Shown here in pieces: positions 5,461 to 51,440 of a stretch of DNA of 54,460 bases. The notes beneath the pieces are model-generated. The model was not told where the DNA came from. It did no database searches and was given only the letters and a program-made list of their open reading frames with translations. The position numbers and the translations under genes are program-made. Where the stretch lies: contig MQRK01233262.1 in assembly GCA_001938485.1 (NCBI GenBank), positions 1 through 54,460 on the forward strand, given 5' to 3'. The first letter of the stretch is position 1; each line of letters starts with the position of its first letter. The DNA is from Girardia tigrina (lineage: Eukaryota).

Positions 5461-6899
5461 TTGAAAGAAAATTAAATAAAATTGGATAATTTTAATATAC
5501 ATTATATAAGTTAATAAGTGCGGAAAAGTACACATAAAGCATATATATAAAAGAAAATATGTTTACATTTTAACATTTGGAGTTAAGGGAAATTTTTCGT
5601 GACGGCGAGATGCGATTATTGAATTTTATTTATTGGATATTTTATAGATAATCAATGATAGAATTTCTTCCCAGACTCACTTCTTCGTGTATTCCGCCAG
5701 TCGTCGAGTTCTTCTTATCAAAATTTGGCATTAGTCGCCGATATTCCTTCAATGTATTCCTTTGATATCCGAGTCATACAGAAATAACTTTCAACTGTTT
5801 TATGTCGTGCAGCTTTACACTCCACCGCTCCGAGCGCCGATCAATAAACTTTTAATAAATTAAACATATATTTTGGTGCATTTGCTTCAGAAAATAAAAA
5901 AAATATTATACATAAAAGTATTTCAAGTTCAATTTTTTAGTACTGTTTTTAAGAAAAATTTTCATTAATAAATACGGATTATTAAAATAAAAATATAAAT
6001 AATATAATAAAATTTTTTTAATGGAAATCAAAGTAAACATATATTTTTATGAAGGTAATTCGACTTTATTTGAGATGAAAAATGTTCAACCTTTGGTATG
6101 AGGTTGGATAAAGTTTTGAATATGGTGAGTCAAATTATTAAAAATAGTTTATATTTATGTAGTTTTTAAAGTAATTTTCTCTACATAAAAAGTCAATTAT
6201 TTGCAATATAAGGCAAGTACTTAGAAGCTACTTGGAATTTCATATCGTTGAACCAGAAACAAAATTTATTTTGGTGCCATCAAATTAACCTGAATTCTGA
6301 TCTCATTATTGTGTTGCGCTTATTTTATTGATTTTTATTAATTATTGTAATTTTTTATTATTAAATTTTTATTCTATAATTCAATTTTATTAATAATTGA
6401 TATTGTTTTAATTTGTACAATTACTTTTTTTCTTTTTTTTTATCTTTTTATCAAAATTGTAGTTGTAGTAATTTTTTAAAAAAATATATGTTTTAAAAGA
6501 AGCAGATTATTATTTTTTCATTACCGAAAACCGATTTTTATAATTTTACAAAAAATCGAATGATCAATTTCTTCAATTTGATTCTCGGGGAATTCGATCC
6601 GAGCGCTTTTGAGTTCAACAACTAAATCGTAATCGATACCATCGTTAACAAAACGATAGAGTCAACCCAATCAATCGAACCGACGGAGACCGATTTCACG
6701 GAACACAACACTCATAATTAAATTAAAACATTATTACCATTTGTGGTCGCTAGAAAAGTTAACATGTTAAGCGGCCATTGAATAGATTATAAAAATACGA
6801 TTCTCAAGAATAACCTGGGAACCAATTATGATTTAAAATATGTTATGAAAACATAAGATAAATTAAAATAGTACTTATGTAAGTCCCATGCTCAACTGT

Positions 6900-7010
6900 T
6901 CTAAATATCGTCTCGCAATCACTCCCGCACACGACGAGAGGCTGTAATTGCAGGTGTGGGATCTTGGATCGAGTAGAGAGTACAGTTTATCATTTATTTA
7001 CTACATGTAT
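6900..7010 (+). pseudogene. Rab/Ras-family small GTPase relic (G3/switch II region)
   Basis: HDERL*LQVWDLGSSREYSLSFIYY resembles the Rab motif KIKLQIWDTAGQERF...YY. In-frame stop present. Confidence 0.45.
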
Positions 7011-7629
7011 TTACTGTACAAATTTATGCACAAAGGTAACACTTTTCTATTCAATTCATTTGAAATAAGATTCATTTTTATTGAGATGCCTTCGACATAT
7101 CTTCCTTTAAGCCTCAAACTCCAAGTTGTTTTCGTATTTCCATTGCAGTAACAGACAAAACTCATAAAGATTTTCAAAATAAATTGTGTAACTAATAGCA
7201 TCAACGTTTTCTTCAATGGAATGCATAGCTTGACTAAAATCAATAACTTTATCACGTGACAAAAAATCAGTGTGTTTGGGATTCAAATATAGTTACTATA
7301 TTGTTAATACCAATTAATTATCTATATCTATATGTATATATATGAATATATTTAATGGTTACTTTCATGGTTACTCTCTCTTTCCCATTCGCCTTGAAAA
7401 AAACTAAGAAACATAACTTTTTTGTGATTCTAATTGTTTTTTTTATTTTTGTAGCTTTACAATGAAAATTTTGCAAAAATTTTAGTTGGAAATTAATTTA
7501 ATGGTTTTTTTTTAAAAAAATATTAATGCGAAAAAATGGCAAAGAGAATTTGTTTAAATGGATCAGATGATATTGAAGGTTGAAAATTTGAAATGAATAA
7601 ATAATCGATCGAAATGTTCTTTACTTATC

Positions 7630-7965
7630 ATTTTCTTTGGAGTTTTATCGAGATGAAATGAATCAGCGATTTGAATAACAAATTCGAGAGTGTCTCGAGT
7701 AAAACCGGGCTCTCCTGATGCAGTTATTTCAGTATTTACGAGCCACAAATCGACGATCTAATTGTCGAATACCACAGGAGAGTCTCTTGCTTAATGGAGA
7801 CTTACCACATTCGATTTGATTTTTCTATTCTGCTGTATCCTGCTGCGACTGGTAAATGAGTACAGGCACACGGATGCGAGCAAGGCGAAGCAATTTTTTA
7901 ATGACATTAGGCGGTTGATTTCTGTGTGGTCAAACGAGACCGATGAGGATTTACAGTTGGAAGAT
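7630..7965 (+). pseudogene. Cullin (CUL5-like) repeat-region relic
   Basis: Three frames join to LEFYRDEMNQRFE*QIRECLE*NRALLMQ / YEPQIDDLIVEYHRRVSCLMET / CCILLRLVNEYRHT...NETDEDLQL. This is colinear with remembered CUL5 LQIYRDNFEKAY...EEEKRALRYLET...CCVNALVTSFKET...NETEKLHL. Confidence 0.55.
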
Positions 7966-8789
7966 CTTTCAATTGACGATGTTGTATCAGCTAATTTCAA
8001 ATATTCGGTGAAAAATATCGACCTAGAAAAAGAAGATCACGAACATCAAATTAAAATGGGCCCAGCACAACCAGAAAGTTTCCCTGCGCAATCCTGTTAC
8101 CTCCGTCCGATTCTTGGGGCAACCTGAGTGTCGGACAGATCACAGTGTATGTGCGATTATGTATAACATGACTAATATTTTTATTCTAATTGCCGAAAAA
8201 AGCATTTTGAAAATTTCACATTTTAATAATAAAAACAATAAAAACAATATAATGAGTGACTTTTGCATTTAATAGAAAATTAACATTTTTGTACAAATAT
8301 AATAAATAACTTTCATATTCTAATAAGATTCAATGATTAATTACGTTTGTTTTGATTTGTTTTTTTTTATTTTAATTGATTTCGAAATTGCAATTTTCTG
8401 TAATTATAAAATTTTAATTAGTTTCTCTTACGTGATTTCGGTAGATTTAGAATTTCTATTTTCGATATCCTTTGATTTGTCTTTTTTTCGGTCGGATCAC
8501 TTTTTATTTCAATTACATAAATTACGATTCGGTTTTTGATTTGAATAAATCCATTTCGTTTAGATTTATATATTTTTTAATTAATTTTTTTTTCTAAAAA
8601 TTATTTAATAATTATTAAATTGTAAGAAATAATTTGATATTTAGATACATAAATTATGACATTCATTTGACGATATAATTTGATTAAATCAATTTAAAAG
8701 TACAATCTTCGGGAAGTTAAATATTCTTTTATTTTATTACTATAAATTTTATTAAATAGTTAATTTGTAACTTTATAAAATTAGTAAAA

Positions 8790-10379: not shown

Positions 10380-10479
10380 TTATTTATTCATAATAAATAA
10401 ACGAAACATTTCTACAAACAATTTTGTCTTTATTGATTAACTGATCGATATTCTAAGTAACATATTGATTATCATTTTT

Positions 10480-10945
10480 GTCTAACAACTCTCCTTTCTA
10501 TTTTTTGTGATTATAAGCAACATCACAATTTGAATGTAAACATTTATTGACAACACAAACGGATTTTTCACAACAATACTCAGTGGTCATCTGTCTTTGA
10601 TTAATATAGTTTTTGTTTACGTTTTCAAATCTAAAAATCAATTAATGGGAAAATTTTAATATTAACTTTTAATTTCTCAAACTTTTATTGGATAAAAAAG
10701 TATTAATTAATTTTTAAAATAAACATTATTTTTTAAAATATATTAAATGTAATAAGTTAAAATTGTTTACTAAAAATATTATTAAAATTTATAATTATAA
10801 AACTTTAATTAATTAGTACTTAAAATTAATATCATTACATTCAAATAATCAATCAACAACATATCAATCCCATCTGAGTAGGAGAGTCACAAATCTAAAC
10901 AGCATACAAACAACAAACTTACAACATTCCAAGTTTTCCCTCACA
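10480..10945 (-). mobile_element. Gypsy 'TGTGAGG' family 5' fragment (putative 71-bp LTR, leader, gag start)
   Basis: Near reverse complement of 47111-47536. Encodes MTTEYCCEKSVCVVNKCLHSNCD. Confidence 0.8.
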
Positions 10946-12360: not shown

Positions 12361-13123
12361 AAACGTAATATATTATTAAATTTTAATATTTATTCTTTTA
12401 ATTTTAAATCGTTAAAAATTTTTTATCAAATTCCCCTTAAATCTTACAAATTTAATTTTTACAAAGGCTTATGATTTTTTACATCCATTTTCCGATTTAA
12501 ATTATTTAAATCTCAAACAGTTAAATAAAACTTAACCAATTTAACAAAAGCCATTGTGGCAGAGAGAGCTTCTACTGTTCCGGAACGGCGGCTGGAGCGG
12601 TGGATCGCTGAGCAGAGTGCGCGCCTAAATCGGATAGACCAGCGAATAGGCGGACTTTGTGAGGTTGAGCTCGATTGGCAGGAAGAACAAACGGAGTAAT
12701 TTGCCGCGCGTTGTCGTGTCAGGCCAAACGCCACGTACAGTTGGCCGATTTAAAAATCAAGTGAACAAGCATATACGAACAATTACTTTTCGTTTACACA
12801 ATTTTAATTCGAAAATTGTTTTCACTACACTCCTCTTAGTTTTATAAATAGTATTGTAACTGTTTTTTGAAAAATTCACTTTTATTTTTGTGACTATTTT
12901 TCAAAAGAAATTAAAAATTTTGGTTAATAAACTTTTTGAATTCTTCAGACACGGTTTACAAAATATATATATTTCATTCAATATGTATTTTTGCTCTAGT
13001 AAAATAGAAAAACTTTAGGGAAAAGTTTACTCAGTTTATCACATCAAATATTAATGAGATTAAACCATAACTGCTTATTTTATGACTGTCAATGAATCAG
13101 TCAAAGAAATTATTACGATCCTC

Positions 13124-13175
13124 AAATAATATTTACTCAACTTTCAAAATTTTTGTTTTATATGATTATACATAA

Positions 13176-13223
<48 letters not shown>

Positions 13224-13292
13224 CAAAAATAATTTTGTTNAAATAATATTTACTCAACTTTCAAAATTTTTGTTTTATATGATTATACATAA

Positions 13293-13338
<46 letters not shown>

Positions 13339-16990: not shown

Positions 16991-17324
16991 GTATCCTTTA
17001 AATATAACAATTTTCCCACAGGATTTAATAAAAATGAATTAGCTGTAAAATATATTTTATTTTAAATACATAGCAAATAATTATGAAAGAGAAAGTTATA
17101 ATATAATTTTTATTTTGTGAATATAGTTTATGTTAATACTTTTATTTATTGTGATTAATTTTTTTTCTATTTTATTTTTTATTAATATATATTAGCCATA
17201 TTTCGGTATGGCTTTTTGTCATCCGATTTTTTCGATTCCTATTTTCATTTTCTTTATTAATAATATGAATTTTAAAAATTTTTGAATAATTTCTAATATT
17301 TAAGTCAATAAATCAATAATTTGA

Positions 17325-17922
17325 TCAATTTTTGTCTATTTTCAAAGTCTCAAAAAGATCCCTTTTGAGGGGTATGGGGTATAACCCCAATAAATACATT
17401 ACTCTCGGGTCGCTTGGGAAATTATTATTATCAATTACCGTTCTCTGGATCAATAAATCACACGCAATAGAAAAGTAAATTTCAATTATTGTTATCTCAT
17501 CATTATATTTCACTTGTCATATAATTGTCGGTTTGATCATACCTTAGATTTTCACTCTAAAAATGTTATGCTGTCTTTTCGTTCCGATTCTGCTCCGATT
17601 ATGGACCCACACAATCATCACATCGAACCACTCCGTGTTTTCCAACTTCTCGGCAGTTAGAATCGCCTCGTTTAACTGCACCACACGAGTATCATTCGCC
17701 GCTCGCATCCTCGTCAGTAGATCCGTATCGACCGCCCACCGGAGTTGGTCGTGCCTGCCTATCACCTCGTAATACGCAGCCCTACCGCTTGTTATTATCA
17801 CATTCATCAATTTCTCTTTAATTTCGTCTTCAACACAATCGATTTGATAGGAAACGCCTATCGAGGTATTCGTTAAAATGTTTCTTCAAATCCTTCTTGT
17901 GAAAAAAATTTTTAACGGGCAT
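17325..17922 (-). pseudogene. PSMD6: 26S proteasome non-ATPase subunit Rpn7/PSMD6 pseudogene (N-terminal half)
   Basis: Starts MPVKN (cf. MPLEN). Core EKLMNVIITSGRAAYYEV...LRWAVDTDLLTRMRAANDTRVVQLNEAILTAEK...SRIGTK aligns with DELMAAVRDNNMAPYYEA...[33 protein letters not shown]...CRIGDK. Later YDQT and GLYPIPLKRD. Several frameshifts and stops. Confidence 0.8.
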
Positions 17923-20900
17923 ATTTTCGTTCTTTTCAAATACCGACAGTAAAATCACAAAAAAAATAATTTAAAATGAATAATAACAAATATCAGATTC
18001 TAATACAATTTATTTTCAAACTTTCAGTTTCTTATTTAAAATAACAACAATAAATTTATAAAAACTTTTTTAATAATTAATTTTTTTAATTATAAAATAT
18101 TATCAAATCAATAATAAATATTTATATTTCTTGTCAAAAAAAATATTCAACAGATATCACAAGAATATTAATACATGTTTCCACACAAGGAAAATGCTTT
18201 TGAAGCCTTTATTATAAAGCTAAAAATGCAAATTCATTTAGCGAATATAACATAAATCAGGAATATAATACAAACAGATTGTATAAATATTAATATACAG
18301 AGTTTTCCAGATCAATCAATTTTACCATTTTACAATTAATAGCAAACGAAATACAAGTATTAAAAACCAAAAAACCTATGCAAAATAAAAGCCCAAAGTG
18401 CCTTGATTCTCGATCAACTACCATGCTCTCTAACCAAGTTTATAGAAAAATGTTTTGACTGCGAAACTCCATTTTCATTAAAATGCTGTCAATTAAAATA
18501 AATGGTCAATCAAAACAAATTTTTTAAGTACTAGTAATAAATATTGTTCACAATAAAAATTATTAAAACATTGTGAATTTTTTATTTTATACCGAGTCTT
18601 AGAAGTTATTTGTTGTGAGAGAGTAGAAAGACCTCATTTTCCGATCAAAAATCACCTCGAAGGGAGAGAATCCAGTGCTTCTACAAATTGTATTTCTTAA
18701 TCCAAATTCAACAAAAAATCAATTCAAGCCTCTTCCCATTCACATCCAGATGACTTCGCTGTTGCGTAAAGCATGTCTTTTGCTGTACCAAATAGTCTCT
18801 CAATTACCCCGTCACCTTGAGGATAATATGGTGAGCTCCGATATTATCTAATTTCGAGAAGAGCACAAAGTTCCTGTACGATCTCGCTCTCAAAAGCAGT
18901 CCCTCTATCTGAGTGTATCCTGTCCGGGATTCCAAATTGCACGATCCATTTGTCAAATATGGATTTGCATATCGTTTTCGCAGTTTTTTTGAAGCGATAT
19001 CAGCATGGGGTATTTTGAAAAGTTATCAATAATTCCCAAGATGTATCTACATCCATTTTTACTTTCTGGAAGTGGTCCTTTTACATCAATAGATATTGTT
19101 CCAAAGGGGTACCCTGCATTTAAGGATCCATGAGCCTTATTTGTGTCTGGTCGTTGATTTTTTCGGCTCTGACATTCTTTACATTTTCCTATTCTTATTC
19201 TAACATCAAAAGACATACCTGGCCAGTAGAATTTATCCTTTACAAGAGCTGTTGTTTTGCTGACTCCGATGTGTCCATGCAACATATGGGCATGACCGAT
19301 GATTTCATTTCTTCTATTTTTTTGCAAAAGAAGTTTATAGTCTCCTTTAAATCGCAAGTCCTCCCGATTTCTCCATAGCACCTGGGCTTCTCTTTCTGCA
19401 TTCTGAAGTTCTCCAGGATATTGATCTTCAACGTTTTTGTTTTTCATAAGTTTAATTATCAAAGCCAGATTATTATCATCCGTCTGACAGACCTCTTCTT
19501 CTTCCATTGCTATCTGCCGGCAGTAGACAGCAGCTTTTTTTATCATTTTGATTTTCATTGTAATATTTAACATTTCGTTTTGCCTTCGGATTTTCGTGGC
19601 TCATTGCACATTGTTGGCATTGGGATAGAGCATCCGCATTCTTATGTTCTTCTCCTTTCCGGTATTGGATATCAAAGACACTCAATTCATTGAGCCATGA
19701 ACTAAATTGACTTGTACTCGGTGTTTTCCTATTCATCATTCAGCATAGAGCTTTGTGGTCAGTTCTTATACTAAATCTTCTTCCAAATAAATAGTGTCTA
19801 TACATTTTTGTATATTTATAGACACTCAATAACTCCCTTGCAAAAAATTGTCACTTTGCTGGTGCAATCTTTAGACCGGCTTCTTTACTTTTGGAAAATA
19901 CTTTTCGCAGTCTGACTAAATGCTCCTCTTATGTCTTCCCAAAAACTAGAATATCATCCAAATATATCAAGCATTCCCTCAAGTCTTCTTCCTTTAATAT
20001 CGCTTAAATAACTCTTTGGAACGTTCCCGGCGCTGCCGCTAAGACCATTGGCAACCTCAAAAACTCCCAATGTCCTTTTCTAGTACTAAACGCTATTTTC
20101 TCTCTATCACACTCTGCAAGACTGTTATAATATCCTGCAGCCAAATCAATTGTACTAAAGTGCTTCGCTCCTCCCAAGGTATCAAAAAGCTTTTGTACGT
20201 CAGGAATTGGAAATGATGGAACTTTAGTCTTTTGATTTAGTCTCCGGTAATCTACTGTAAGTCGAATATCTCCGTCCTTTTTTCGTACAATCACTATAGG
20301 AGCGTTCCACTCTGATAGACTTGGTTGAATATTATTTTTCTGTAGCAATTGTTCAACAAACTCATCCACTTTTTCTTGGAGCGCCACCGGAATTCTCCTT
20401 GTTTGCTCCTGTATCGGGCCATTATCTTTAAGCTCTATTTTATGCTCAGTGTTCCGCGCCAAGCCTATATCATATTTAGACCAACTAAATACGTCTCTGA
20501 ATTCTTTCACTAAACTAATAATATTGTCTCTATTTCTATCATTCACACATCTAAATTGGGATAAGAGACACTCACTTTCAGGCGCTTCTCGTGTAATGGT
20601 AGCTGTTACAGTCTGAGTCTCATAGGGCACATCTGCTTCCGACTCCTCAAACAGTGCCCTTTTAATTTAACTGATTTGTTGGGACTGCCGTATCTGAATT
20701 CACCTTCGAAACGAATGAAACGAAAATTATTCCACTATTAACACCATTATTATCGAGATCAATCTTAATCCAAAGACTCTTCATGCTCCATATCCCAAGA
20801 ATTATATCCGGGCTCAATCCATCCACAACAAAGAAATTTCAACTTTTCCCTTTAGCACCCAATTCAACTATCAGGGATACTTCCGCTCGTACAGGCGCTG

Positions 20901-21119
20901 TAAATCCATCTGCACACTTGATTTTTCTGGATGAACGTCTGGCTTTCAATGTTTTATCTGAATCTTGGAACTTCATTAGCATGTCATTGCTGATAGTATT
21001 CACTTCGGCTCCGGTGTCTAATAAGATCTTTTTACTGTTCCCATTGATCCGACCGTAACACATTGGTTTGTTCTGATCTTTTACTTTATAACTGCTCTTC
21101 TTTATTCGAAGATTATTCT

Positions 21120-21785
21120 GTTCCTTTTGTTAAGGTTTCGAAAAATACTTATGAACACTTTTGATAAAATTTTATGTAAAAAAATTAAAATAATTCTTTT
21201 GCTAAAATTATTAATTTCAAACAAAATAATATTTAGTTTATCAAAATTTGGAATTGAAAATTAAAAATATTTTAGTCTTTGTTTTATTATATCAATTTTA
21301 AAGGCTGATGAAAACCACTATATAAACAGCAGCAAATTTTATTTAGTTTGCCCAAAAATTTCTAATTTAAAACTACAAGAAGTAAGAATCGTAAAGTTTA
21401 TTTTTATTTTTTTATTCGATTAATATTCCTCTATTGAAAGTTCTGATCGATAGTACCCTGTAGAGGAGAAGTGATCATTGTAATTTTCAATTGTTTACGG
21501 TTATCGTTCGTCTAGAAGATTTAGAGTTTGAAAATAAACAAAATATCCGAATATCCGTTTGTGAATACGTCTATTGATACTATTGAATTGAACAATATAA
21601 AGCTGTGTGCTATTTTGTGTTATTGAAAAATAAAGTATTTGGAAAAAGAATTTTGTGTTCATTTATTTATATATTTATGTTGGAAGTCCTTTCTGATTAA
21701 TTGGAGTCAGATTTCAGATTAAAGATTAACGATTAAAGATTTAAGATTTGTTTTTAAAAAATAATATTTAAATTAAAGATAATTT
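21120..21785. other. AT-rich insertion separating gag from protease
   Basis: Abrupt composition change inside the Gypsy element. Patchy similarity to 32580-32770. Confidence 0.5.
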
Positions 21786-22832
21786 AATACCCAACACTTT
21801 TGTTTCGGAACTGTTTCTTTCACCGCTCTGGCATACGACTTCTTTGCATTTGAAATATGACAAATTCTCGGTTTTTCTGTACCTCTTCCCGTGTCTGTTT
21901 CACTTTCATTACTGGATATACTGGCAGACTCGACCACGTGGACTGATTTACGTTTTCCGTTTAGACAAAATTTATCTATATGCCCCTTTTCGTTGCATTT
22001 TTTGCAGAATCGAGACTTTTTACAGTCTCTCAAAATGTGACTGCTGCTCCCACAATTCCAGCATCCAATTGTTTCTTTGACAGGATTTCTAGTTCTATTA
22101 TCGCCTTTCCATTGACTCGATTGACTTTCTTGATGCAGACCTTTTACCGTTTCCTGCAATGAGGTAATACGTTTGTTCAGTTCTGAAATTTCATCCCTGA
22201 GCATTCGAATTTCATCATTCTCGGACAGCACATTTACTGTTGCCGCCATCTCCTGGGTTACACATTCTTTTTTTATCATCTTGAATGCTTCATCCAAAGT
22301 TTTAGGCTGCAACACTTTTAGTGCTTTTTGAGCTATGTCATTCATTAAACCATTTATAGAAACTTGGAGAGTTTTTGGCTCTCTTTCTTCGGAGGTCAAC
22401 TCCGGTAATTCTTTAAAACAATGAATTCTGGCTTCTTTCATAAAGTCCTTCATTGGCTGGCCATCCTTCTGTCGAATGCCGTTTAGTTTCATCCACGATG
22501 AAATATCTGACTTCTTTCGTCCGAACAGCTTCAAAAAAGTTTCCTTGAGGATGGAACGAAACCAAATCCTCGAAACCCTTTTGGTTTTGGGTGTAACCCC
22601 ACTGCGACTTCAGAAAACACTGAACATCTTCTTCCAAGTATTCCATGAAGAATTCAGCTTGTGTTTCCTCCGATATTTTAAGTTGCCGCATAAATGCATC
22701 CATGCATTTCAAAAATTGGGCAGCATCGTTCCCTTCTTCGAATGTTTCGGAGTTTAGGCGGAGTCCTTTTTCAGGATTCTATTCAAAATTACTTCAAGTA
22801 ATTTCGACTGGTGATCTCCACTATCGGCTTTG

Positions 22833-22850
22833 ATCCTGCTCATGACGCCA
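22833..22850 (-). promoter_or_regulatory. Primer-binding site, tRNA-Ser-like
   Basis: TGGCGTCATGAGCAGGAT (18 nt) is complementary to a tRNA 3' end ATCCTGCTCATGACG-CCA and lies 4 nt from the LTR end. Confidence 0.8.
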
Positions 22851-22854
22851 CTAT

Positions 22855-22973
22855 TGTGAAAGAGAATATCCAACTAAGAAAAATATATTTGAATTAACAA
22901 TTTACAATAATGATTATTAAAACACACACACACACACATTACAATACATTAATATTTACATAATTATTCCACA
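22855..22973 (-). repeat. Putative 119-bp 5' LTR with an internal (TG)n tract
   Basis: TGTGGAA...TTTCACA inverted termini directly upstream of the PBS. Confidence 0.7.
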
Positions 22974-23375
22974 TTATTAATCGAACTACGAAGAAGGATC
23001 CGACAACAATCTTAGTGGTATTATCCGCTCCAATACTGACTGCGTAACTAGTTTCTTCATTTTTGACGTCGTTAAATAAGAGCTAGAGTAAATTAATGTC
23101 AGACATTGAGCACACCAGGTTTCAACATTTTTATAGGCAACCATACCTTAAAGCAAAACAAAATGTATTAATCAGAAGTCGACGTTAAACTATTTTAAGC
23201 TTTTATTAGTTTATTACAAACCATTATTGTTTAAAGAAAAAATGCTTCGAAATTGATTGAAAGAGTTGAATTTAAAAAATTATTTAAAAGATACCTATTA
23301 AATTATTAACTAGTAAATTTTATAGAAATTAAAAATATAATAAAAAAAATTTCACAAATATAAAGAAACATTTAT

Positions 23376-24755
23376 TTAAAAGTAAAATGTCGAATCTGTT
23401 TTTTGGTGCAGTGAAGGAAGGACGTTGCTGCACTCCACAAACTGTATATTTTCTTCAGGAAATTCGCAGTAAAAGTTGTTATAAATTTTGCCTGTTAAAG
23501 TAATTATTTTGGTATTGTAATCATGGAGTTGGATATCTTCTAACAACTTTTTGATTTTTATCATTGATTTGTTTTGGGATTCTACCTGTAATTCCTCACA
23601 GTAAGTTAGAGCGTCTAAATAGGCACTGAGAAAAGTCTCTTTCATTTGAATATTTCCGTCATTAAATAGTAATATAATCTTTACTAAATTATCACCTTTG
23701 AAAACTTCTGATATTTGCGACCAATCGCCCTTCTTTAGAATGTTACCATAAATATTCATAACCTTTTCTCGCAATTTAATATTAGCATTATTAACAAAAT
23801 TGTTCACATTTTCCTTTAAGAGCGGAAGAAGAAGCGGTTCGAGTACTATTTCTTTATAACCAGTTATATTTTCAAGGATATCCAACACCATTTGGTGAAC
23901 TCCTGCGTCAGTTTGATTCAAACCTAGTTTGAAAATACTGAAACAGTCTCTGAAAAGATGTATAGAAACGATTTCGCTGTTGCATTTAGAAAGATACTTC
24001 AGCAATTGCAAATATAATCTAATGTGACAGTTTTTGAAAACCTTTGAAATTATTTGTGTTTGCATTACTACGTGTAGATGCTGGCAATTGTGGCAAAGGA
24101 AATTTAAAGAATGGCAAATATTTTCATGTACAGATTCTGTTATAAAATCTGCAAATTTAAGTAACAACGAAAATATAAAAGACAAGTCTGCTTCATGAAG
24201 GTACTCATGACGCTGACAGATATACGCTACGACCCACGAGACTTCAATCAACACTTTCTCGTCGGTTTCTTTTCCGACTATCGCTTGTAAGATGTTCGCG
24301 AAATTGTTCGACAGTAACATTTGCAAATATAAAATATTACATCCGATTAGGTTGCCAAAGATGATAAGGCAATCTTGTCGGAAAATTGCGGAAGATATTA
24401 ATGTTGTAAGTAACGAGATAACAGAGTTATGTAGCAAGTATCTTTCATTATCCTTTTGAGCAGATAAATATCGAATTATCATTACAGTTTTCATTTGAAT
24501 ACTCTGATCTCCACTTTCCATACCCTTTATTAGACATTCTTGAAGATCTCTATCATTTATGGGATTGTATTTCACACCCTCCGTATCGATTTCCATTTCG
24601 TTTAATTTGGAGGTTCGTTCGATTATTTGATAAATCTCATCTAAATAATTAAAGTTGCTAAATTGTTCGACATTTCTTTCGTTATTCAATTTTCTTTTTT
24701 TATTCAAAAATAATTCCTCGTTTGATTCGACCGACAAATGTCTTTTACCTTTCAT
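23376..24755 (-). CDS. Divergent importin-alpha-like ARM-repeat protein (459 aa, single ORF)
   Basis: Basic IBB-like N-terminus (KRHLSVE..ELF..KKRKL...RNV). ARM-like GNLIG, SWVVAYI and ENITG. C-terminus DIQLHDYN...IYNNFY...STFYF resembles importin-alpha LQNHEN...IEKYF...TFNF. Confidence 0.8.
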   Translation of the reverse strand: MKGKRHLSVESNEELFLNKKRKLNNERNVEQFSNFNYLDEIYQIIERTSKLNEMEIDTEGVKYNPINDRDLQECLIKGMESGDQSIQMKTVMIIRYLSAQKDNERYLLHNSVISLLTTLISSAIFRQDCLIIFGNLIGCNILYLQMLLSNNFANILQAIVGKETDEKVLIEVSWVVAYICQRHEYLHEADLSFIFSLLLKFADFITESVHENICHSLNFLCHNCQHLHVVMQTQIISKVFKNCHIRLYLQLLKYLSKCNSEIVSIHLFRDCFSIFKLGLNQTDAGVHQMVLDILENITGYKEIVLEPLLLPLLKENVNNFVNNANIKLREKVMNIYGNILKKGDWSQISEVFKGDNLVKIILLFNDGNIQMKETFLSAYLDALTYCEELQVESQNKSMIKIKKLLEDIQLHDYNTKIITLTGKIYNNFYCEFPEENIQFVECSNVLPSLHQKTDSTFYF

Positions 24756-25760
24756 TTGAGTTTTTATAATTCTTTTTTAATTTAAATATATTTATTGAAA
24801 CAAATTAAATTTGATTTCTCCTTAATAAGAATTTGAAAAATTTTAATTTTATTATATAATATTACATTTAATTATATTAAATAGTGTTTTTTTTACAATT
24901 TCGATTTAAATTTTTGATCTTTAACATTTTTAAATATTTGAGTTGAAAGTATTAAAAATATTCGATTTTTATTTTTAAAAAATTAAATAGAAATTTTTTT
25001 TATAAAATTTTAATATTCAACCTTCACATTTTAAATTAAATTATTTAAATTTCTAAAATTTAAATTATATTTTTAAAGTTATATATATATATATATATAT
25101 ATATTAGTAATATTTTTAATATTTAAATGAAGATTTTTTTTATTTGAAGATTTTAATTAAATATTATATATAAAATTTATTTAATAAAAAGTTTTTTTTA
25201 TAAATTTATATATTTAAGCATAACATTTTTAATTTGGTTATTAAATTATATTAAAAAATTTAAATTATATTTTTAATGTTTTTTATATTATTATAATTAA
25301 TACAAATTTTTTAATAAATAATCATGTTTTATAATATTGATAAATTTAAAGAATATTGTAAAATGTAATTTAAATAATCTCGGCAAGTTATTTTCAAAAG
25401 ACAAATAGCGCACATTTAATAAGTATTAATATTAATTTGAACTTGGGTCCAAACAATACGTACAAATACCCTTTGAAGCAATGTTAATTTAACGGTGAAC
25501 TTATATAAAATTTGCTCTTTAAGTATTTTTGGTTGAGTAATCAATTTTCTTTATTCTTCAATTTTATTGAAAGTATTTCGATTTACTGTAAAATAAATAA
25601 ATGATCATTGTCTTTGTATCTAAATGTGAAGATGACTGTATATATGTCGAAATTAATAAAGTAATTTATCTTTTAATAATTAAATTTTGATAATTTTAAG
25701 TTAAGGTTTAATATAATATATTTTATGAAAATGTTGTTTTTTTTAATTTTGAATATATAT

Positions 25761-29464: not shown

Positions 29465-32408
29465 ATGGAAATTGAAAATTCATTATTGAACTCGAAAATC
29501 TTTTCCGACATCACAAATACAATTGTGAATGTAGCGGAAAGACAACCGGAAATACAAATAGCAAAAGAGAATGGAGACTCTACGAATGTTTTTGAACGAC
29601 TTGAGGAAGAATGGAAAAATTTGAAACAGATTCCAGTTACAACCTATAGCAAAGTTTCGATTGACTCAAAGATTTGTCATATAGCGTCGTTTGAAGATGT
29701 GGATAAAAATGCAAAAGGACTTTATGAAGCGATGAAGGCTCGAGAACGTTATATGAAGCTGTCTCACCAAACATTTAATAAAACGACGGGACGATTTTTG
29801 AAAATCGAAAAATTGTGCTCAAAACATTTTGATCATAAATGTAGTATCAAAACATTTTCTTTGAAAAAGTTAGAAAATGTCGATTTCTTTCCGCATCATT
29901 CGTTAGAAGATCAGTTTAATTTCGAGAAAGGAGTGATGACAGTCTCAAATTCCACTTCCGAATTCAAATTTGAATGTCCTGTTTCTTATGAAGATTTTAA
30001 GAAGGATTACTACAATATAGTACATCTTTCTGCTGACGGTCCGCTAAAAACATTTTGTTTTAGTCGTCTAAGCTTCCTGAAGTCACAATTCGATATGCAT
30101 AAAATCATAAACGGAAACATGGAGTCCACTGAGTTGAAGACTAATTCAAATAAAGATTTTTACAACATTCAGAAGGTTGATACTCATATCCATGCTTCAT
30201 CGTGTATGAATCAGAAACACCTTCAAAGATATATAAAGAATTGTATAACACAAAATTCAGGTGAAGAAGTCATGGTTGATAAAAAGACTGGAAAAGTGTT
30301 AACNNNNNNNNNNNNNNNNNNNNNNNNNNNNNNNNNNNNNNNNNNNNNNNNNNNNNNNNNNNNNNNNNNNNNNNNNNNNNNNNNNNNNNNNNNNNNNNNN
30401 NNNNNNNNNNNNNNNNNNNNNNNNNNNNNNNNNNNNNNNNNNNNNNNNNNNNNNNNNNNNNNNNNNNNNNNNNNNNNNNNNNNNNNNNNNNNNNNNNNNN
30501 NNNNNNNNNNNNNNNNNNCATATATCGATGATACCAAATATCAAAGTGCAGAATTTCGACTGTCAATCTATGGAAGAAGTATAAATGAATGGGATAAACT
30601 AGCCAAATGGGTTACATCAAATAAGGTTCATTCAGAAAATGTCAAATGGATGATTCAAGTACCAAGACTTTATGATATCTTCAAAAAAACCAAAGCAATT
30701 AGTTGTTTTCAAGACATAATTAANNNNNNNNNNNNNNNNNNNNNNNNNNNNNNNNNNNNNNNNNNNNNNNNNNCATCATTCGTTAGAAGATCAGTTTAAT
30801 TTCGAGAAAGGAGTGATGACAGTCTCAAATTCCACTTCCGAATTCAAATTTGAATGTCCTGTTTCTTATGAAGATTTTAAGAAGGATTACTACAATATAG
30901 TACATCTTTCTGCTGACGGTCCGCTAAAAACATTTTGTTTTAGTCGNNNNNNNNNNNNNNNNNNNNNNNNNNNNNNNNNNNNNNNNNNNNNNNNNNNNNN
31001 NNNNNNNNNNNNNNNNNNNNNNNNNNNNNNNNNNNNNNNNNNNNNNNNNNNNNNNNNNNNNNNNNNNNNNNNNNNNNNNNNNNNNNNNNNNNNNNNNNNN
31101 NNNNNNNNNNNTATAAAGAATTGTATAACACAAAATTCAGGTGAAGAAGTCATGGTTGATAAAAAGACTGGAAAAGTGTTAACCTTGAAAGAAGTTTTTA
31201 ATTCGGTTAATATTGAAGAACACGATGTAACTGTTGATCGACTTGATGTACACTGCGATCACAACACATTTCATCGGTTCGATACATTCAATTCTAAATA
31301 CAATCCGGCTGGTCATCCAGATTTGAGAGACGTATTCTTGAAAACCGATAACTATACAAACGGTAAGCATTTCGCGGAAATCATCAAGGAAGTCATGGCA
31401 TATATCGATGATACCAAATATCAAAGTGCAGAATTTCGACTGTCAATCTATGGAAGAAGTATAAATGAATGGGATAAACTAGCCAAATGGGTTACATCAA
31501 ATGAGGTTCATTCAGAAAATGTCAAATGGATGATTCAAGTACCAAGACTTTATGATATCTTCAAAAAAACCAAAGCAATTAGTTGTTTTCAAGACATAAT
31601 TACAAATTTCTTTCTTCCTCTTTTCGAGGTGACAAGGGATCCCTCAAGTCATCCGGAATTACATTCGTTTTTAGAAAATGTGAGTGGATTCGACTCAGTT
31701 GATGATGAATCAAAAACAGAACTGACCGATCTCCACAAGACTGACCCATATCCCGATCAATGGCAATCTAAACATAATCCTCCATACGCCTATTACTTAT
31801 TCTATATGTATGCTAATATGGTGGTTTTAAATAATTATCGTCGTTTAAAAGGTTTATCAACATTTAACTTTCGACCACATTGTGGAGAATCAGGATCTCC
31901 AAAACATCTTGCAGCTGCTTTTCTTCTTGCCGATAATATTAGTCATGGAGTTTTGCTACGTAAAACACCTGTTGTTCAGTATTTATATTACCTTTGTCAA
32001 GTGGGAGTAGCTATGTCTCCTATTAGTAACAACTTCTTGTTCCTTGAATATACAAGAAATCCATTTTACGATTACTTTTCTAGAGGATTAAATGTTAGTC
32101 TTAGTACTGATGATCCATTACAATTTCATTTCACAAGAGAGCCTCTTATGGAAGAATATAGCATGGCGACACAGATATGGAAGCTGACACCGACGGACAT
32201 GTGTGAATTAGCTAAGAACAGTGTTTTGATGAGTGGATTCAGTGCTGAAACTAAAGAAAAATGGCTTGGAAAAGACTATAACGATGAAGGAGTAAAAGGA
32301 AATAACATTTCCTTGTCAAATGTTTCCAATATAAGACTCTCCTACCGTCATGAAACATTGTGCAATGAACTGGTCCTGATACTAAGAGCATTGTATCCAG
32401 ATCTTTGA
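29465..32408 (+). CDS. AMPD: AMP deaminase (about 687 aa after removing the 880-nt duplicated overlap)
   Basis: KVDTHIHASSCMNQKHL, TFHRFDTFNSKYNP, GFDSVDDESK, FRPHCGESG and SLSTDDPLQFHFT motifs. No introns apparent. Confidence 0.95.
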
Positions 32409-39722: not shown

Positions 39723-39799
39723 AATTTTCAATTCGCCAAATAATTCATAAAAATTTATATTTAAAATTTTAATAAAAATTCAATTATGGTGCTGGCCTC

Positions 39800-40125
39800 C
39801 AGATCGAGGTGTGAAGGCAAACACCCGTTTCTCGTGCGAGAAACAGTCACTCGGCGGAACAAATTGACCTGTCTAGTATCGACCAGAATTCAGAGTACCG
39901 CTGAGTAACGCTTCCCGTACCGAGTCCCCGTTGCAGTAACAGACGATAACACTCGATGTGGTGAATTGTTCTATCGGTTCATCGACACACGGCCCGAGTG
40001 CGTGGTCGGTGAGGATGTAGGGATCCGCCATGCATCGCGAAATGATGTGAGGCAATTGCGCATGGGATCTGACCGATTGAGGCTGCTTCCGCACAAAGCG
40101 GTTCGAATAGTTATTCATGATAACT
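39800..40125 (-). pseudogene. GC-rich gene relic, possibly Sec1/Munc18 family (Vps45-like) C-terminus
   Basis: LGP...VIVCYCNGDSVREALLSGTLN resembles LGP...[21 protein letters not shown]. Weak match. Confidence 0.35.
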
Positions 40126-40821
40126 TTAAAATCAATATTAAAATCCGTTCAAAATTAAAACGAGAATAAAGCGGAGTCATTTATTAAATTCATTCAGTTC
40201 AATTCAAAAATTGTGTCAATAATTACGAAAACATTAAAAAATACATCATGTCTTTTGAAATTAAAAATAATTAAAAAAGGACTTTAAAAATCAAATACAA
40301 AAATTAAATAATTATGTAAAACAAAAAAGTACAAAAAAGTCAATTCCATTTACAGTACCAAAAAACTATTTTTCAACAAATTTTAATTAACTTTGATTCA
40401 AATGATTTTTAAAATTTCCTCGTACTATGGGATCCGGAAATGAATAGTAAATATATTATATATGAATGATGTACATAATTACTGACCCAAATTCATAATA
40501 CAACTTCCTCCGGTTAAATAAATATAATATTTGATTGCTATCTGATCTAAACAATAAGATTTACGATATAAAAGATAACCGAATCAAAGTAGAATTTGAT
40601 TTGAATTTTCGATGATGAATTAACAAACAATTTTATAAATATGCGATTAGGTTTGTAAAGTTATTGTTAAATTTTGTTATTTGTGTATGCTTAATTTATT
40701 TAATATAATTAGAATTTAAATTTATTTGTATTTATATCATTCTACACTTTATATATATATATATATATATANNNNNNNNNNNNNNNNNNNNNNNNNNNNN
40801 NNNNNNNNNNNNNNNNNNNNN

Positions 40822-41539: not shown

Positions 41540-41655
41540 CACGCTCTGTCATCAAAGAAGTTCCAACAGTTGCAGATGAAATTGCCAAATTATCGGGAAC
41601 CAGAAATTTTGTTGTGAAAGCTCAGCTTCTAGTAAGAGACTGTCGATCGGGACGC
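41540..41655 (+). pseudogene. Succinyl-CoA ligase beta subunit N-terminal fragment
   Basis: ADEIAKLSGTRNFVVKAQLLVRDCRSG versus the family motif A..IAKKLG.KD.V.KAQVLAGGRGKG; the glycine loop is destroyed. Confidence 0.6.
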
Positions 41656-42849
41656 ATTTCTATGATCCCAAACGCACCCGATCCTTATCTTTGGAAATCA
41701 GATAAAATAACAGAAACGAAAGAGAAAATAACTTCTCTGAGCATTCCAATTCTCCAACAGTACATGCAGCTGCTTTTTTTCGCCAACTTCTTTTTAACAT
41801 CTTTGTTGTGGACATTGAAAAAGCTTTCTCTCATATGGATCAATTGGGGATATCAGAGCACGAATTCATATGAAAATTGCACTTTAACATTCAAATAATT
41901 AAACGACGTAATTTATTCTTCAATCCACGTTTATGACATAAATTAGTTGCAAATATTTACTCTTTTTATCTTTTTTGTGATCCTTTTGAGAGTTGGATGA
42001 AGTTTTTGGGGAGTTTCTGTATTGGAAGACGAGTTTTGTGAAAGGGCAAATGTAAATATAGGGTTAAAACCATCATTGTAAAATATCAACTTGTAACATG
42101 GAAACTAAGTTTTGAGTTTCTATAACTTTAAATTTATACGACATATATTGATTTTTTCTTAATTGAATGTTTATTTATATTAGTTTTCTTCTTGATCTTT
42201 GGGCCTCAAAAAGTTGTATATTTGAACTATATCGTCTTGTAGTCGCAAAATATAACGTTAATATTAACGAATTCAAACACAAAACCCTACATCAATCTTA
42301 AAAATTAATAAATCCCTTGACTTTACAAACTTCCAACTCTTACTTTTAAAATATAAAATGAATAATGTAAAATGTTTTCATTATTTTTTTCATTTCTAAC
42401 ATTTATGCAACTTTTTTTATATAACAAATCAGAAATAAATTTTACTGTTATTATTTTAATCAAATGAGTCTTGTTGTTAATTAACTTTTGACATTTTAAT
42501 AAATGTAATTTATTTGTTTCAATTAAAAGTTTCAAGAAAATTTTATTTTTTTCGTTTCACTTAATTAATTTAAAATTTGATATTCTTTTATTATTGAAAA
42601 AATATCCAATTTAATGTAGTGATATTATGAAGAAAGTCTGTTAGGAAGAATATTAGTATTATTAAATTACTATTCAAAATTAAAATCATTCAAATAAATA
42701 ATAATGATACAAATAGAACTTGTAATAGAGAAGATCGGAAACAAACAGCTATCAAATCAAAATTTAATTACTTATCAAAATGACAATCGTGGGAATAGGT
42801 TTTTCGAAATAGATGACAAAGTGTTAGTAAAAAAGGTCTTCTAGTCGTT

Positions 42850-47110: not shown

Positions 47111-48270
47111 TGTGAGGGATAATTGTGAATGTTGTAAGTTTGTTGTTTTTATGCTGTTTAGATTTGTGACTCTCCTACTCAGATGGGATTGATTATTTGA
47201 ATCTAATGATATTAATTTAATGATATTAAATTAAAGTACTAATTAATTAAAGTTTGATAATTATGAATTTTAATAATATTTTCAGTAAACGATTTTAACT
47301 TATTAAATTTAATATTTTTCAAAATTAATGTTTATTTTAAAAATTACATAATGTCTTTTTATCCAATAAAAATTATGAGAAATTAAAGTGTAATATTAAA
47401 ATTTCCCCATTCATTAATTTTTCATATTTAAGTATTTAATCAAAAACTATATTAATCAAAGAAAGATGACCACTGAAAATTGTTGTGAAGAATCTGTTTG
47501 TGTTGTAAATAAATGTTTGCATTCAAATTGTGATGTNNNNNNNNNNNNNNNNNNNNNNNNNNNNNNNNNNNNNNNNNNNNNNNNNNNNNNNNNNNNNNNN
47601 NNNNNNNNNNNNNNNNNNNNNNNNNNNNNNNNNNNNNNNNNNNNNNNNNNNNNNNNNNNNNNNNNNNNNNNNNNNNNNNNNNNNNNNNNNNNNNNNNNNN
47701 NNNNNNNNNNNNNNNNNNNNNNNNNNNNNNNNNNNNNNNNNNNNNNNNNNNNNNNNNNNNNNNNNNNNNNNNNNNNNNNNNNNNNNNNNNNNNNNNNNNN
47801 NNNNNNNNNNNNNNNNNNNNNNNNNNNNNNNNNNNNNNNNNNNNNNNNNNNNNNNNNNNNNNNNNNNNNNNNNNNNNNNNNNNNNNNNNNNNNNNNNNNN
47901 NNNNNNNNNNNNNNNNNAACCAAAGATATAAAAAGCGTAGTTACCAATATGTACGAACTACGTAAAATGGAAAGTGAGGAAACAGTGGCAGCATATACGA
48001 CGGTAAATAAACAAGATAATTGGAAAACCGTAACTGGACGCAAAGCTATACACAATGAAAGAACCCCACATAGACATTACGAACAAAACAATAGGAACCA
48101 AGGAAATAATGGATTCAAACCGAAAAACAATTATTACAGAACCGTAAAATGTTATGCATGTCAAGAAGAAGGCCACATAAGAAGAGATTGCCCAAATGTG
48201 AAGTGTACCCTTTGCAACAGAAATGGCCATTATAGAACTCAATGTTATCTCAACAAGAATTCTAAATTGA
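47111..48270 (+). mobile_element. Gypsy 'TGTGAGG' family: putative 71-bp LTR, leader and gapped gag
   Basis: Same 5' motif; CYACQEEGHIRRDCPNVKCTLCNRNGHYRTQC. Confidence 0.9.
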
Positions 48271-49099
48271 TAAAATAAAGTCACAATTTATACTGGTAAA
48301 CCCGATCAAATCAAATTAACAAATTAAATTCGTACAAGAAAATTGCTCGAATTTTAATTTTTTCCATTATTAATTTAGCACCGTAAATATTCTAAAAAAT
48401 AACAGCAATATGTTAATAATGGCTATAGGAATATACAGCTAGGCATAAGATTTCAAATAATATCTAACACTAATACATTTAAACTTATATACATATCAAA
48501 TAACAAAGAGATAAACAAGGTATAAAGCTCAAAAACCGCATTTATTTTTCGACCAACCTAATATTAAAATTATTATAATCAGAAAATAATTTAATTTAAA
48601 TATACGAGAGCAGGTTAAAAAAACGAAAGACAAAATAACGGTAGTCAAAATATCGACAAGTCTGATGACAAAGAAATCACATAGCAAAATGCATTAATGT
48701 TATAAAAGAAATAAACATAAATTGAAAATTTTTTTAAAACGGTAGATTATATATAATTCATTTCAAATATTTCACTAGTTCAGTACTGCAACGTCTATTT
48801 ACTACAACAATTATTCTATTTTCTCTTTGAAGGATACTACTTTGGTGTTTTTAGATATTATTTCACATATTTTTTCATATTAATTATTTAAAAATAAGAA
48901 AATTTATAAGTTATAGTATTTATTTGCAACACGAAAAATTTTCAAGAATTTAAAATGTATTTCGAATTTTTAAATAACCGAATTTTCTAATTTTAAATTT
49001 TTATGATCATTTAAACAGTTATTTATAATAAGAACATCAATTGAGTTTTCACTACATTTATTTATATCACAATTTGAATTGCCACTAGACCAATTCTTC

Positions 49100-49436
49100 G
49101 TAAAACTTGTGTAGCTCGTCATCGTTCTTGATTGATAATTTTTTTAATAATATTCTTTAACGTCTTATTATTCAAACAAAATTAAATTACAATTTAATTA
49201 TTACAAAAAATAATTTAAACTTTAAATTAAAAATAAATTTTATTTTAAAAAAAATTATTAAAATATTATTTATGAAATATTAATTTAATTTTAAAATTGA
49301 TGGTTTAATTTTTAATAATTAATTAAACAATCACACGTTTTAAAATATCAATCTTCCATCTGGGTGGGAGAAACGCAATCCTAAAACAGCATTTAAATTA
49401 ACATACAATAAACACGATTCAAACATATTCCTCATA
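49100..49436 (-). mobile_element. Gypsy 'TGTGAGG' family solitary 5' end
   Basis: TATGAGGAATAT...TCTCCCACCCAGATGGAAGATTGAT followed by an AT-rich leader. Confidence 0.65.
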
Positions 49437-51184
49437 ATCTATATTACTATTTTTCTGTCGATGTTTATAGGTTAAATTTATTTTAATTTAATATAATTGC
49501 CAAATTTAAATTTGTTAAATTTTATAATAAATTTTTCAATAAACAAAGAACATAATTATTGTAAAATAATGAATGTTTATTTTGATTTTAACCAATAAAA
49601 TTCATAGTAACTATTTTTAGAAATTTTTCAAGTTCCAATTAGTTTCGATATGCAAAATTACGAAAGTTAAGATAATATTTGTGATAGTAACAAAATTATT
49701 GACATTTTGCATAGTATTTGTTAAATATATAAATTATTAATCTGTATTTCATAACAATTAAATAACGTCATATTGAAATTAGTTTTTGAAAGGGTTTTTT
49801 TTAAGTTCGTTATATTAATACTTATTTAAAAGTTAGATCCAATTTTTTTGTTTACTTTTTGAATGAATAATGTACAATTTGTGATTGAAATCTTACAAAA
49901 AATAATCAACAATTAATTTTAAAATTATATTATTTGTTTAAATCCAAACTAAAAATTTTCATCAAAAATTTATTGGGATTTTAATTATATCATCATTGAC
50001 ATGTGTCGTAATCAGAGCAATGATTGATGTTCTCCCTTGTGGTCTGAGAATGGTTGAGAGTAGGTCTAATAGATATTAATCTGGTAACATAATTGTCTTC
50101 CCTCGAGATTGATTGACAATGCTTCTAACATTTTCTTACGGGGAGGAGAAGGTAAACTTTATTATAAATGAATGTTTGAATGTGGTCGGAATTTGTCATT
50201 ATTCTCAACATTTTATTGTCACTAGAAATACATAATTATGACCTATTCATGGTCGAACAAGTTGCTTTACACTGATCCGAACATGACTTCATTGTTACAT
50301 TCTATAAAAAGAGGGTAATATATATTTGACAAATATGTTATAAAAAATAATATTAAAAAATATTAAATATCTTTATTTTGTATTTTAGTCTGATTTTTCT
50401 GTTCTAAATAATAAAAGTATAGAAAATAATGTCAAAGTCAGGAAATATATTTTTTATTTTGTTAAAAGACCATTTTATCTTGCAGGAAGAATTTGGCTCA
50501 ATGAGAGGAATAATAAAATAGTTAATAATATAACTAATATAAAATTGTTCATATCTTTCTTTTTGTCATAAACTTTTAAATATTGTTTATTTAAGTGACA
50601 TTTATCGATTTCGGTTAATGTAGTGACATAAATAATATATTCATAAATATAAATTTATATAAACGACAAGTAATAAAAAACTATTATTTCTTTTTTTCTT
50701 TAATTAAACATAATTGATATAATCAAAGTCAAAAAAACAAGTAAAAAATATTTGAAAATAAATTGAATTAAATATATACGAATTAAAATTTAGATATATT
50801 TAAATGTTGTAAAAGAAATTTTAAAAAAATTATAAGATATAATTAAACTGATAAGAATTAAGAAATTTTTGGGATGGTTTTAAATTGTTTATACAAATTA
50901 AAATGTGTAATGTATTTCAAAAATTAATAAAATTAAACGAAACGATTAAATAATTATAAATTCTGTTACAATATAAAAGTATAAAATTTGATTAAAGATA
51001 AAATAATTAAATATTTCATAATTTTATCTTAATTACAAATTGATAAAATTTATTCAAAACAAAATTTATAAAATTAAAATAAAATAAAATCAAAAATATT
51101 ATAAGTATTTTTATTTTTACCGGTTTAAGATTTATAAAATAAATTGTTTCTCAAAAAAATAATTTTGTTTAAATATTAGTGTGG

Positions 51185-51440
51185 TCAGAACAGTTGTAGG
51201 GGGTAACCGTGCTCCGGGCAACTTAACTGTGGAGAACCCGCCCACTCCGGATTTGGGTGGAACTGCGCGTCCTCGTCGTAATTAACCGAAACTGAGCTCG
51301 CGTCATCCTCATTAAATATCGATTTCTGTTGCTCATTATCACCATTTAAGGTTAAGAACGACCGATGGAAATCATTATTGAATTTATCGATTGATTTACT
51401 GATGGTATTTGCCCGCCGATATCCATTGAGAGAGAAATTG
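51185..51440 (-). pseudogene. B-box zinc-finger (TRIM-like) gene relic
   Basis: Open frame GYRRANTISKSIDKFNNDFHRSFL...SPQLSCPEHGYPLQLF*. This gives C-x2-H-x7, with TGA at the position of the next Cys. Confidence 0.55.

Follow-up and report, generated by a model that had tools for sequence, protein, structure and literature searches.

Why does an AT-rich contig of the flatworm Girardia tigrina contain short stretches that are rich in G+C and CpG? The window analysed here is the whole 54-kb contig MQRK01233262.1 (54,460 nt; 28% GC with N excluded), from an assembly of 1.43 Gb in 255,254 contigs. A first-pass annotation, made from the letters alone, had listed nine such islands, numbered here 1 to 9, and read them as eroded, intron-free relics of unrelated housekeeping genes. 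All nine are where it placed them, with 39-57% GC compared with 16-31% in the 300-bp flanks, and with 4.3-9.5 CpG per 100 bp compared with 2.0 in the window. Ranked within the window, their best 200-bp stretches come out at the 82nd-100th percentile; those of islands 2 and 3 (82nd-83rd) are not richer than the Gypsy coding stretches of the window, much of which is made up of decayed Gypsy-type coding sequence. The nine islands are not a single class of gene relic. Two of them (6 and 8) are demonstrably gene-derived, islands 2, 4, 7 and 9 are repeats of the long terminal repeat (LTR) type, and the annotation's reading stands for islands 6 and 8, while the other seven were not shown to derive from genes. 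We regard it as probable that six islands (2, 4, 6, 7, 8 and 9) are the GC-rich parts of LTR end-repeats, two of which carry pieces of host genes, likely brought into the LTR when the element's reverse transcriptase switched templates, and likely spread as solo LTRs.

These six islands are members of dispersed multi-copy repeat families with fixed ends, where the annotation had seen no shared flanks. Aligned copies start with TG, end with CA, have sharp edges and are flanked by target-site duplications (TSDs) of 5 bp; some copies have TA or other decayed first bases. TSDs, which had also been reported as lacking, are exact in the window itself for islands 2 (CTCAT) and 4 (CAGTG). The annotation had further described open GC-rich cores with edges decaying to AT. 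The cores do erode, but the edges were mostly AT-rich from the beginning, consisting of the original AT-rich 5' part of the unit and of the gene's own 5' UTR and exon 1. In all own-genome DNA searches, no more than 40 candidates were scored per search. A six-frame Pfam scan of the islands (48 frames) gave no relevant match, and the gene names were therefore tested via copies elsewhere in the genome (loci with L numbers); Rfam gave no match. Read support comes from the contigs of two public DNA runs (X1 and X2) that belong to a single study; one of the runs may be the assembly's own source.

Host-gene pieces in islands 6 and 8

Island 6 belongs to an LTR-type unit on the minus strand (17413..18416), with the 5' end at 18416 and the outermost 3' end lost beneath another repeat (~17170-17409). 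The unit contains a piece from the 5' end of the Rpn7/PSMD6 mRNA (17579..17926, minus strand), in which exon 1 (17926-17785) is joined to exon 2 (17784-17579). Both exons match the host gene, which confirms the Rpn7 label given by the annotation. Comparison with a functional paralog had also been proposed there, and the host has two Rpn7 genes: one is intronless, with a low GC content at third codon positions (GC3 0.39), and the other, the parent, is GC-rich and contains introns (GC3 0.94). As first found, the GC-rich gene lacked an N-terminus, its sequence beginning behind the CAG of an acceptor site. The absent exon 1, which ends at a GT donor in matching phase, was recovered in 4 of the 21 matches obtained for the Rpn7 5' part alone; the island 6 region as a whole gave 514 candidates, part of them from the neighbouring repeat. 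The window piece is 78% identical to exon 1 (L285) over 137 nt and 69% identical to exon 2 (L027) over 205 nt, the two exons being adjacent without an intron, and it scores 317 to the spliced gene versus 117 to the intronless paralog. Identities of about 70% in the Rpn7 5' UTR were disregarded, being no higher than noise in AT-rich DNA, and so were the codon-position values for Rpn7, which had been computed out of frame. Judged from these alignments, the cargo of island 6 is spliced host Rpn7 mRNA; it comprises the 5' end with the start codon, in sense orientation.

The exon 2 cargo has fallen from 72% to 54% GC. The window copy has 43 GC-to-AT versus 6 AT-to-GC changes, and across 11 related Rpn7 copies, of common ancestry and with a duplicate of the window locus among them, the counts are 463 versus 49. 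Many stops and frameshifts are present in the copies. The parent exon 1 has only 42% GC, and the AT-richer side of island 6 is therefore inherited. The 5' terminus of the unit is common to its copies and like that of island 4, and the tail family shows 2 exact and 2 one-mismatch TSDs among 5 two-ended copies (26 loci). One tail of 80-105 nt is joined to Rpn7 pieces at different junctions and to unrelated sequence. In a tree of 38 proteins, including 36 selected among 120 listed homology matches, both host Rpn7 genes group together (100/99), beside four unnamed proteins, within a clade with trematodes and cestodes.

That island 6 might be an LTR of the neighbouring Gypsy element was ruled out by a second copy of the locus (L002), in which the Gypsy-type insertion (18610-22974) is absent but the Rpn7 unit and the adjoining ORF are both retained. 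The intronless Rpn7 paralog (L026:1309-2472) is intact, 72% identical to the spliced gene, and has pseudocopies of its own (L031, L032). At L033 a decayed piece, presumably Hsp60-like, is directly joined to a central Rpn7 piece.

Island 8 (41554..41710, plus strand) forms the 3' end of a unit of LTR type and carries a piece of succinyl-CoA ligase beta, one of the gene names listed by the annotation; the name was upheld by fuller copies and by a host exon. The search gave 158 candidates. Fuller copies have an ELOVL piece upstream and, in L129, a CDK piece too. In L129 Pfam gives ELO at E 2.7e-26 and Pkinase at E 4.2e-11. The identity of L129 to the window is 76% over 159 nt, and to the host ligase exon it is 86.5% over 52 nt. 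The ligase piece matches an exon of an intron-containing host gene, and the cargo runs beyond the acceptor of this exon without intron sequence. The 5' terminus of the unit is again like that of island 4.

What makes the cargo appear GC-rich is the contrast between host exons, of which some have GC3 >90%, and a background of 28% GC. GC-rich exons within AT-rich contigs were found in other native genes as well, namely a second ligase gene and an ELOVL. Native exons with very high GC3 are present at L027, L107, L131 and L299 (Rpn7 0.94, CUL3 0.77), in many cases where the contig is short or a gap adjoins, and the genes concerned have further exons of lower GC.

Island 4 and related LTR-type units

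Island 4 (7273..8142, plus strand) is a complete unit of 870 bp, with the TSD CAGTG at 7268-7272 and 8143-8147. Its 3' half holds a frame of ~180 codons and a U5 hairpin lies at the unit end. The stretch with islands 1-5 gave 5913 candidates, and all 43 non-self matches listed fall on the island 4 unit; TSDs are exact in 11 and have one mismatch in 4 of the 15 two-ended copies (20 loci examined). The same primer-binding site (PBS) follows directly after the island 4 end in 3 of 4 pattern matches. It begins TGGTAGCAGAG, which would fit the 3' end of initiator-Met tRNA. The PBS-type pattern has 469 matches genome-wide versus 25 for a control, the 469 including antisense copies inside U5. On the 3' side of PBS-bearing LTRs, a ubiquitin domain was detected in 6 of the 9 loci scanned and a DUF1759 Gag (Bel/Pao) in 5, among them L256, whose LTR end is 89% identical to that of island 4 over 98 nt; the protease match downstream was weak and below the cut-off. 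Because its copies precede a PBS and a ubiquitin-Gag region of Bel/Pao type, island 4 is classified on sequence grounds as a solo LTR of Bel/Pao type. Depth on island 4 in the X1 and X2 contigs is orders of magnitude higher than on islands 1, 3 and 5, and no empty-site joint for islands 2 or 4 was found among the 15 of 85 joints listed.

HSP90 and LRR pieces lie in frame upstream of ubiquitin at L265 and L262. In the Bel/Pao-type loci L265:1490-2575, L262:1302-3920, L268, L273, L255 and L133, ubiquitin ends in Gly-Gly just before Gag. For L113 a single hairpin is predicted in which the LTR end pairs with the PBS (-36 kcal/mol, computed without shuffled controls); both there and in the window (8076-8142) the LTR end has a GCAA-loop hairpin and a near-complement of the PBS, with predicted pairing. 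Several copies keep the island 4 frame open, and its third-position excess is mild (0.088 versus 0.065). The frame had no match in PDB, no longer homologues were found for it, its best Atlas score (0.88) was below the useful level, and a search of 1.84 billion representatives returned only two LTR-end-matching proteins and one repeat protein. At L149-L152 there is a tandem array of ~340-bp units, each ending in CA and the PBS sequence, possibly like TRIMs (terminal-repeat retrotransposons in miniature).

The sequence ahead of the PBS is not constant: 50 PBS matches fall into 17 clusters by upstream sequence. We scanned 27 frames from 13 PBS-bearing sister LTRs, some picked by eye, and found cargo domain matches in four of the 13: a PP2A-type phosphatase (Pfam E 2.6e-7, PDB E 2.6e-14), tubulin (4e-5), RWD (5e-4) and BTB (0.018). 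Two coiled-coil matches look spurious, and 7 of the 13 had no domain match. The cargo of L260 and L354 may resemble HECTD1 and cyclin, respectively. Family searches with ELO and cullin each yielded broken pieces by the dozen, with ends close to a single position in the profile, and in one cullin-search family cullin, CXC and ThiF pieces are fused in a frame of 630 codons. This repeated in-frame mosaic (CUL4-like, CXC, ThiF) was seen at L309:1273-3162 and in ~40 cullin-search matches. Capture of host pieces is widespread in the genome. Element capture or retrocopying, one of the origins suggested by the annotation, was the right choice for islands 6 and 8.

No parent gene was found for islands 2, 4, 7 and 9. 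Island 2 (6307..6710, plus strand) is a complete 404-bp unit of solo-LTR type, with an AT-rich 5' part, a GC-rich 3' part and the TSD CTCAT at 6302-6306 and 6711-6715. Of its 232 candidates 40 were scored, and 8 distinct two-ended copies (12 loci) include 5 with exact and 2 with one-mismatch TSDs. Island 7 (39785..40233, minus strand; 974 candidates) and island 9 (51180..51536, minus strand; 865 candidates) are 5'-truncated units of this type, the former from a Gypsy-like superfamily whose outer terminus is common to island 9. In this superfamily, 5 of the 20 loci viewed have, directly behind this terminus, a different tRNA-type PBS and then a Gag-like frame, which is weakly DUF7041-like (E 8e-4, below the cut-off). 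Gypsy-like Gag frames 3' of the PBS at L193, L194, L204 and L208 also contain, ahead of the part that looks capsid-like, a segment with Leu-Leu-Gly-Gly at its end; this segment is ubiquitin-like by eye, without a Pfam match. A PBS behind the AT-rich terminus in the superfamily of islands 7 and 9 was considered and discarded, the matches being mostly flanking DNA, and a PBS search for island 9 found none. Island 9 has 2 exact and 2 one-mismatch TSDs among 4 two-ended copies (11 loci), and its third-position excess (0.24 versus 0.15) is stronger than that of island 4, while island 7 has no codon-position bias. A short second piece of the island 9 family lies at 52724-52807.

Searches found no parent or protein match for islands 7 and 9. 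The B-box-like motif of island 9, B-box being another name from the annotation, is not conserved in the copies (alignment A3), and searches gave no match; Vps45 likewise had no support in searches. CUL5 is not supported as a name either, no island having a cullin match when 45 cullin-search loci were compared, with host CUL5 partly covered; the sole match was an island 7-like repeat in a CUL5 intron.

Origin of the cargo

The best reading is likely LTR-mediated retroposition, with capture inside the LTR and not between LTRs. The clade has LTR-type ends, TSDs, a PBS and a Bel/Pao Gag, its cargo is spliced and in sense orientation, and this cargo decays toward AT. Behind these features we infer that host mRNA was packaged along with the element RNA, that the first strand jumped onto it, that the piece was copied into both LTRs and that solo LTRs then formed. 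A host mRNA would be packaged together with the element RNA, and the first short cDNA, covering the repeat and unique 5' regions (R-U5), would land on this mRNA instead of on the element's 3' end and copy toward the mRNA 5' end. A switch back to the unique 3' region (U3) would then give U3, a sense mRNA piece and a constant U5 tail. A following round would place the altered LTR at both ends, and later rounds could build mosaics such as CDK + ELOVL + ligase. LTR-LTR recombination would leave TSD-flanked solo units, the cargo of which would decay toward AT, as shown for Rpn7. A strand jump of this kind would account for the constant tail directly behind changing cargo and for an Rpn7 cargo that includes the start codon.

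Several observations weigh against this reading. The LTR status of the island 6 and 8 units derives from common ends and from tails related to PBS-bearing LTRs, and there were no matches to a PBS-bearing copy of either the Rpn7 or the ligase unit. No two-LTR element, reverse transcriptase or integrase was recovered from the 20 PBS loci that were extended, where contigs ended or the element broke before pol or the 3' LTR. Exons 1 and 2 of the Rpn7 parent are on different contigs, joined only by frame and splice phase; the ligase parent's upstream exon did not turn up, and for the ligase the PDB match is weak (E 0.76). TSDs are poor in the island 8 family (1 exact and 2 near among 8 two-ended copies, 28 loci) and weak in that of island 7 (1 exact and 1 near among 4 two-ended copies, 11 loci). 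In L273 and L269, which have the two strongest PBS-linked cargo matches, the LTR 5' end was not located, and where it was located (L360, L262 and L260) the cargo match is weak or tentative.

Some of these points would suit a different origin, in which the island 6 and 8 units are small non-autonomous elements with nothing but integrase-type ends left, LTR-derived or Ginger/Pack-TIR-like DNA transposons, that moved singly and did not form as solo LTRs. No PBS follows these units, no two-LTR element was seen, and TG...CA ends with 5-bp TSDs also suit small integrase-end elements. We nevertheless consider this unlikely: the ends and tails match LTRs that bear a PBS and are linked to Gag, the cargo is spliced and therefore passed through RNA, and among ~20 Rpn7 copies none with a PBS is expected at the rate of island 4 (a handful among thousands of candidates). 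Passage through RNA could also have been the work of a long interspersed nuclear element (LINE) that placed processed pseudogenes in existing LTRs, which were then amplified. The intact intronless retrogene L026 does imply that retroposition by some machinery is active, but the Rpn7 cargo is the 5' end with the start codon and not the 3' end, neither poly(A) nor an inner TSD is visible in the alignments, the 5' pieces end in a TG...CA-type tail, and unrelated cargoes abut a common tail, which makes a LINE origin quite improbable.

Retention in a functional role, such as that of small-RNA templates or of LTR-encoded peptides acting on host genes, would agree with the island 4 frame, open in several copies and with third-position excess, and with the stronger excess of island 9. 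Neutral decay of GC3-rich cargo is expected to give such an excess too, however, and in the Rpn7 copies stops and frameshifts abound and the composition moves toward AT; we find this explanation very improbable. Relics of a foreign or ancient high-GC genome, also suggested by the annotation, or contamination, are hardly credible. The GC-rich Rpn7 exon (GC3 0.94) does sit on a 1.3-kb contig, but this spliced gene is native and sister to the low-GC paralog of the host inside flatworms (100/99), other GC-rich exons lie within AT-rich contigs, TSDs are present, and in the X1 and X2 contigs islands 1, 3 and 5 are continuous with their flanks. For island 6 a foreign-genome origin is contradicted.

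Beyond LTR-mediated capture in these units, we put forward tentatively, and with slightly more doubt than conviction, a wider model for the flatworm Bel/Pao clade. Its LTR may be a swappable cassette in which a constant U5 tail picks up 5' ends of host mRNAs time after time, with a different cargo per subfamily; solo LTRs may then seed gene starts and in-frame mosaics. Ubiquitin ahead of Gag could serve as a host-cleaved linker that lets captured pieces ride on the polyprotein. Capture inside the LTR would give one testable mechanism for many host-gene scraps in a large flatworm genome. It moves gene capture from between the LTRs to inside them, where cargo would be doubled in each round and survive as solo LTRs. 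Such copies could be a source of piRNAs directed at housekeeping genes, a means of exon shuffling and a cause of error in gene annotation. Further leads are the fusion of ubiquitin to Gag and, in a genome of 28% GC, native exons whose GC3 is >90%.

Other window features and comparison with known systems

The three remaining islands are single- or low-copy. Island 1 (5600..5845) is a single-copy GC-rich stretch for which DNA and protein searches find only itself, without a Pfam, PDB or cullin match. Island 3 (6876..7004, plus strand) has no other copy in the own-genome DNA search and is possibly a decayed Rab-family piece. The Rab-like label of the annotation survives here as a hint, all four PDB matches being Rab3 proteins but the best of them (Rab3D) having an E of 0.16. 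Island 5 (12553..12724) is a fragment of an older low-copy repeat, with two matches over the island at 71-73% and a third partial copy; 18 frames of the three copies gave no Pfam match and no coding match was found. An intronless ORF of 462 codons at 23379-24764 (minus strand) is ARM-repeat or importin-alpha-like by eye, has a second copy 95% identical and has no match in Pfam or PDB. An intronless AMP deaminase (E 3e-212) lies at 29438-32408 (plus strand); parts of it recur exactly around N gaps, which probably reflects duplication in the assembly. An AT-rich repeat of ~430 bp that is very abundant has two copies in the window (10518-10945 and 47111-47536), with a depth >1 million in X1 and X2.

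What we describe is best read as a known process, LTR-mediated retroposition, in a form that is apparently undescribed. In metazoans, as set out in the passages of Tan et al. 2016 on this process (PMC5131818), partial, intron-free sense mRNA pieces are joined to LTR-element sequence without poly(A), and multi-gene chimeras, also by a Pao element, and further amplification are reported. Like those retrocopies, the Rpn7 cargo is intron-free and comes from an intron-containing parent. In the same passages, however, the retrocopy stands between two LTRs in place of part of the internal ORFs, whereas here the cargo is inside one unit, between the 5' terminus and the U5 tail, in a TSD-flanked solo unit with tens to >100 copies (PMC5131818). 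Internal cargo (HSP90, LRR) does occur in relatives of the island 4-type elements. A plant review mentions, in its relevant part, only retroelement sequence entering an LTR (PMC13317346), and the corresponding parts of PMC11410931 and PMC6739440 contain no mention of gene fragments or bimodal GC3. We found no published description of LTR-internal mRNA capture or of a ubiquitin-Gag Bel/Pao element, Repbase Reports, most subscription papers and supplements being outside the scope of this search.

The island 4-type elements resemble Belpaoviridae in having LTRs of 0.2-1.2 kb, a PBS after the 5' LTR, a DUF1759 Gag, CCHC knuckles and, by a weak match, an aspartic protease (PMC8742986; passages of PMC3118150). 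The ICTV profile gives a PBS of Arg or Gly type (PMC8742986). The one found here differs from it and would be of initiator-Met type. They further differ in the ubiquitin domain before Gag and, in some copies, the in-frame HSP90 or LRR (PMC8742986). Bel/Pao families have been reported from a planarian, in passages that do not contain the word ubiquitin (PMC3118150). The giant Burro/GYPSM1 elements of planarians, in the section devoted to them, are also LTR elements with host-derived domains, including a Ubi2/SUMO-like one, but they belong to the Gypsy lineage, exceed 30 kb and have stable domains in the polyprotein, and no LTR capture is described in that section (PMC6431247).

Host-RNA-derived sequence inside LTRs and 5-bp TSDs are shared with the TRIMs Cassandra, Helenus and Ajax, which, in the part of the source that treats them, carry one fixed 5S or tRNA piece instead of a changing protein-coding mRNA cargo (PMC10886601). 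Cytopathic pestiviruses, according to the passages on their insertions, have cellular RNA pieces and ubiquitin in frame in the polyprotein, often as mosaics, like the elements here, but are RNA viruses without integration (PMC13517609). It is by analogy with them that ubiquitin ahead of Gag might be seen as a host-cleaved linker. If the model holds, the swappable-LTR clade would be an animal, RNA-based counterpart of Pack-MULEs at genome scale.

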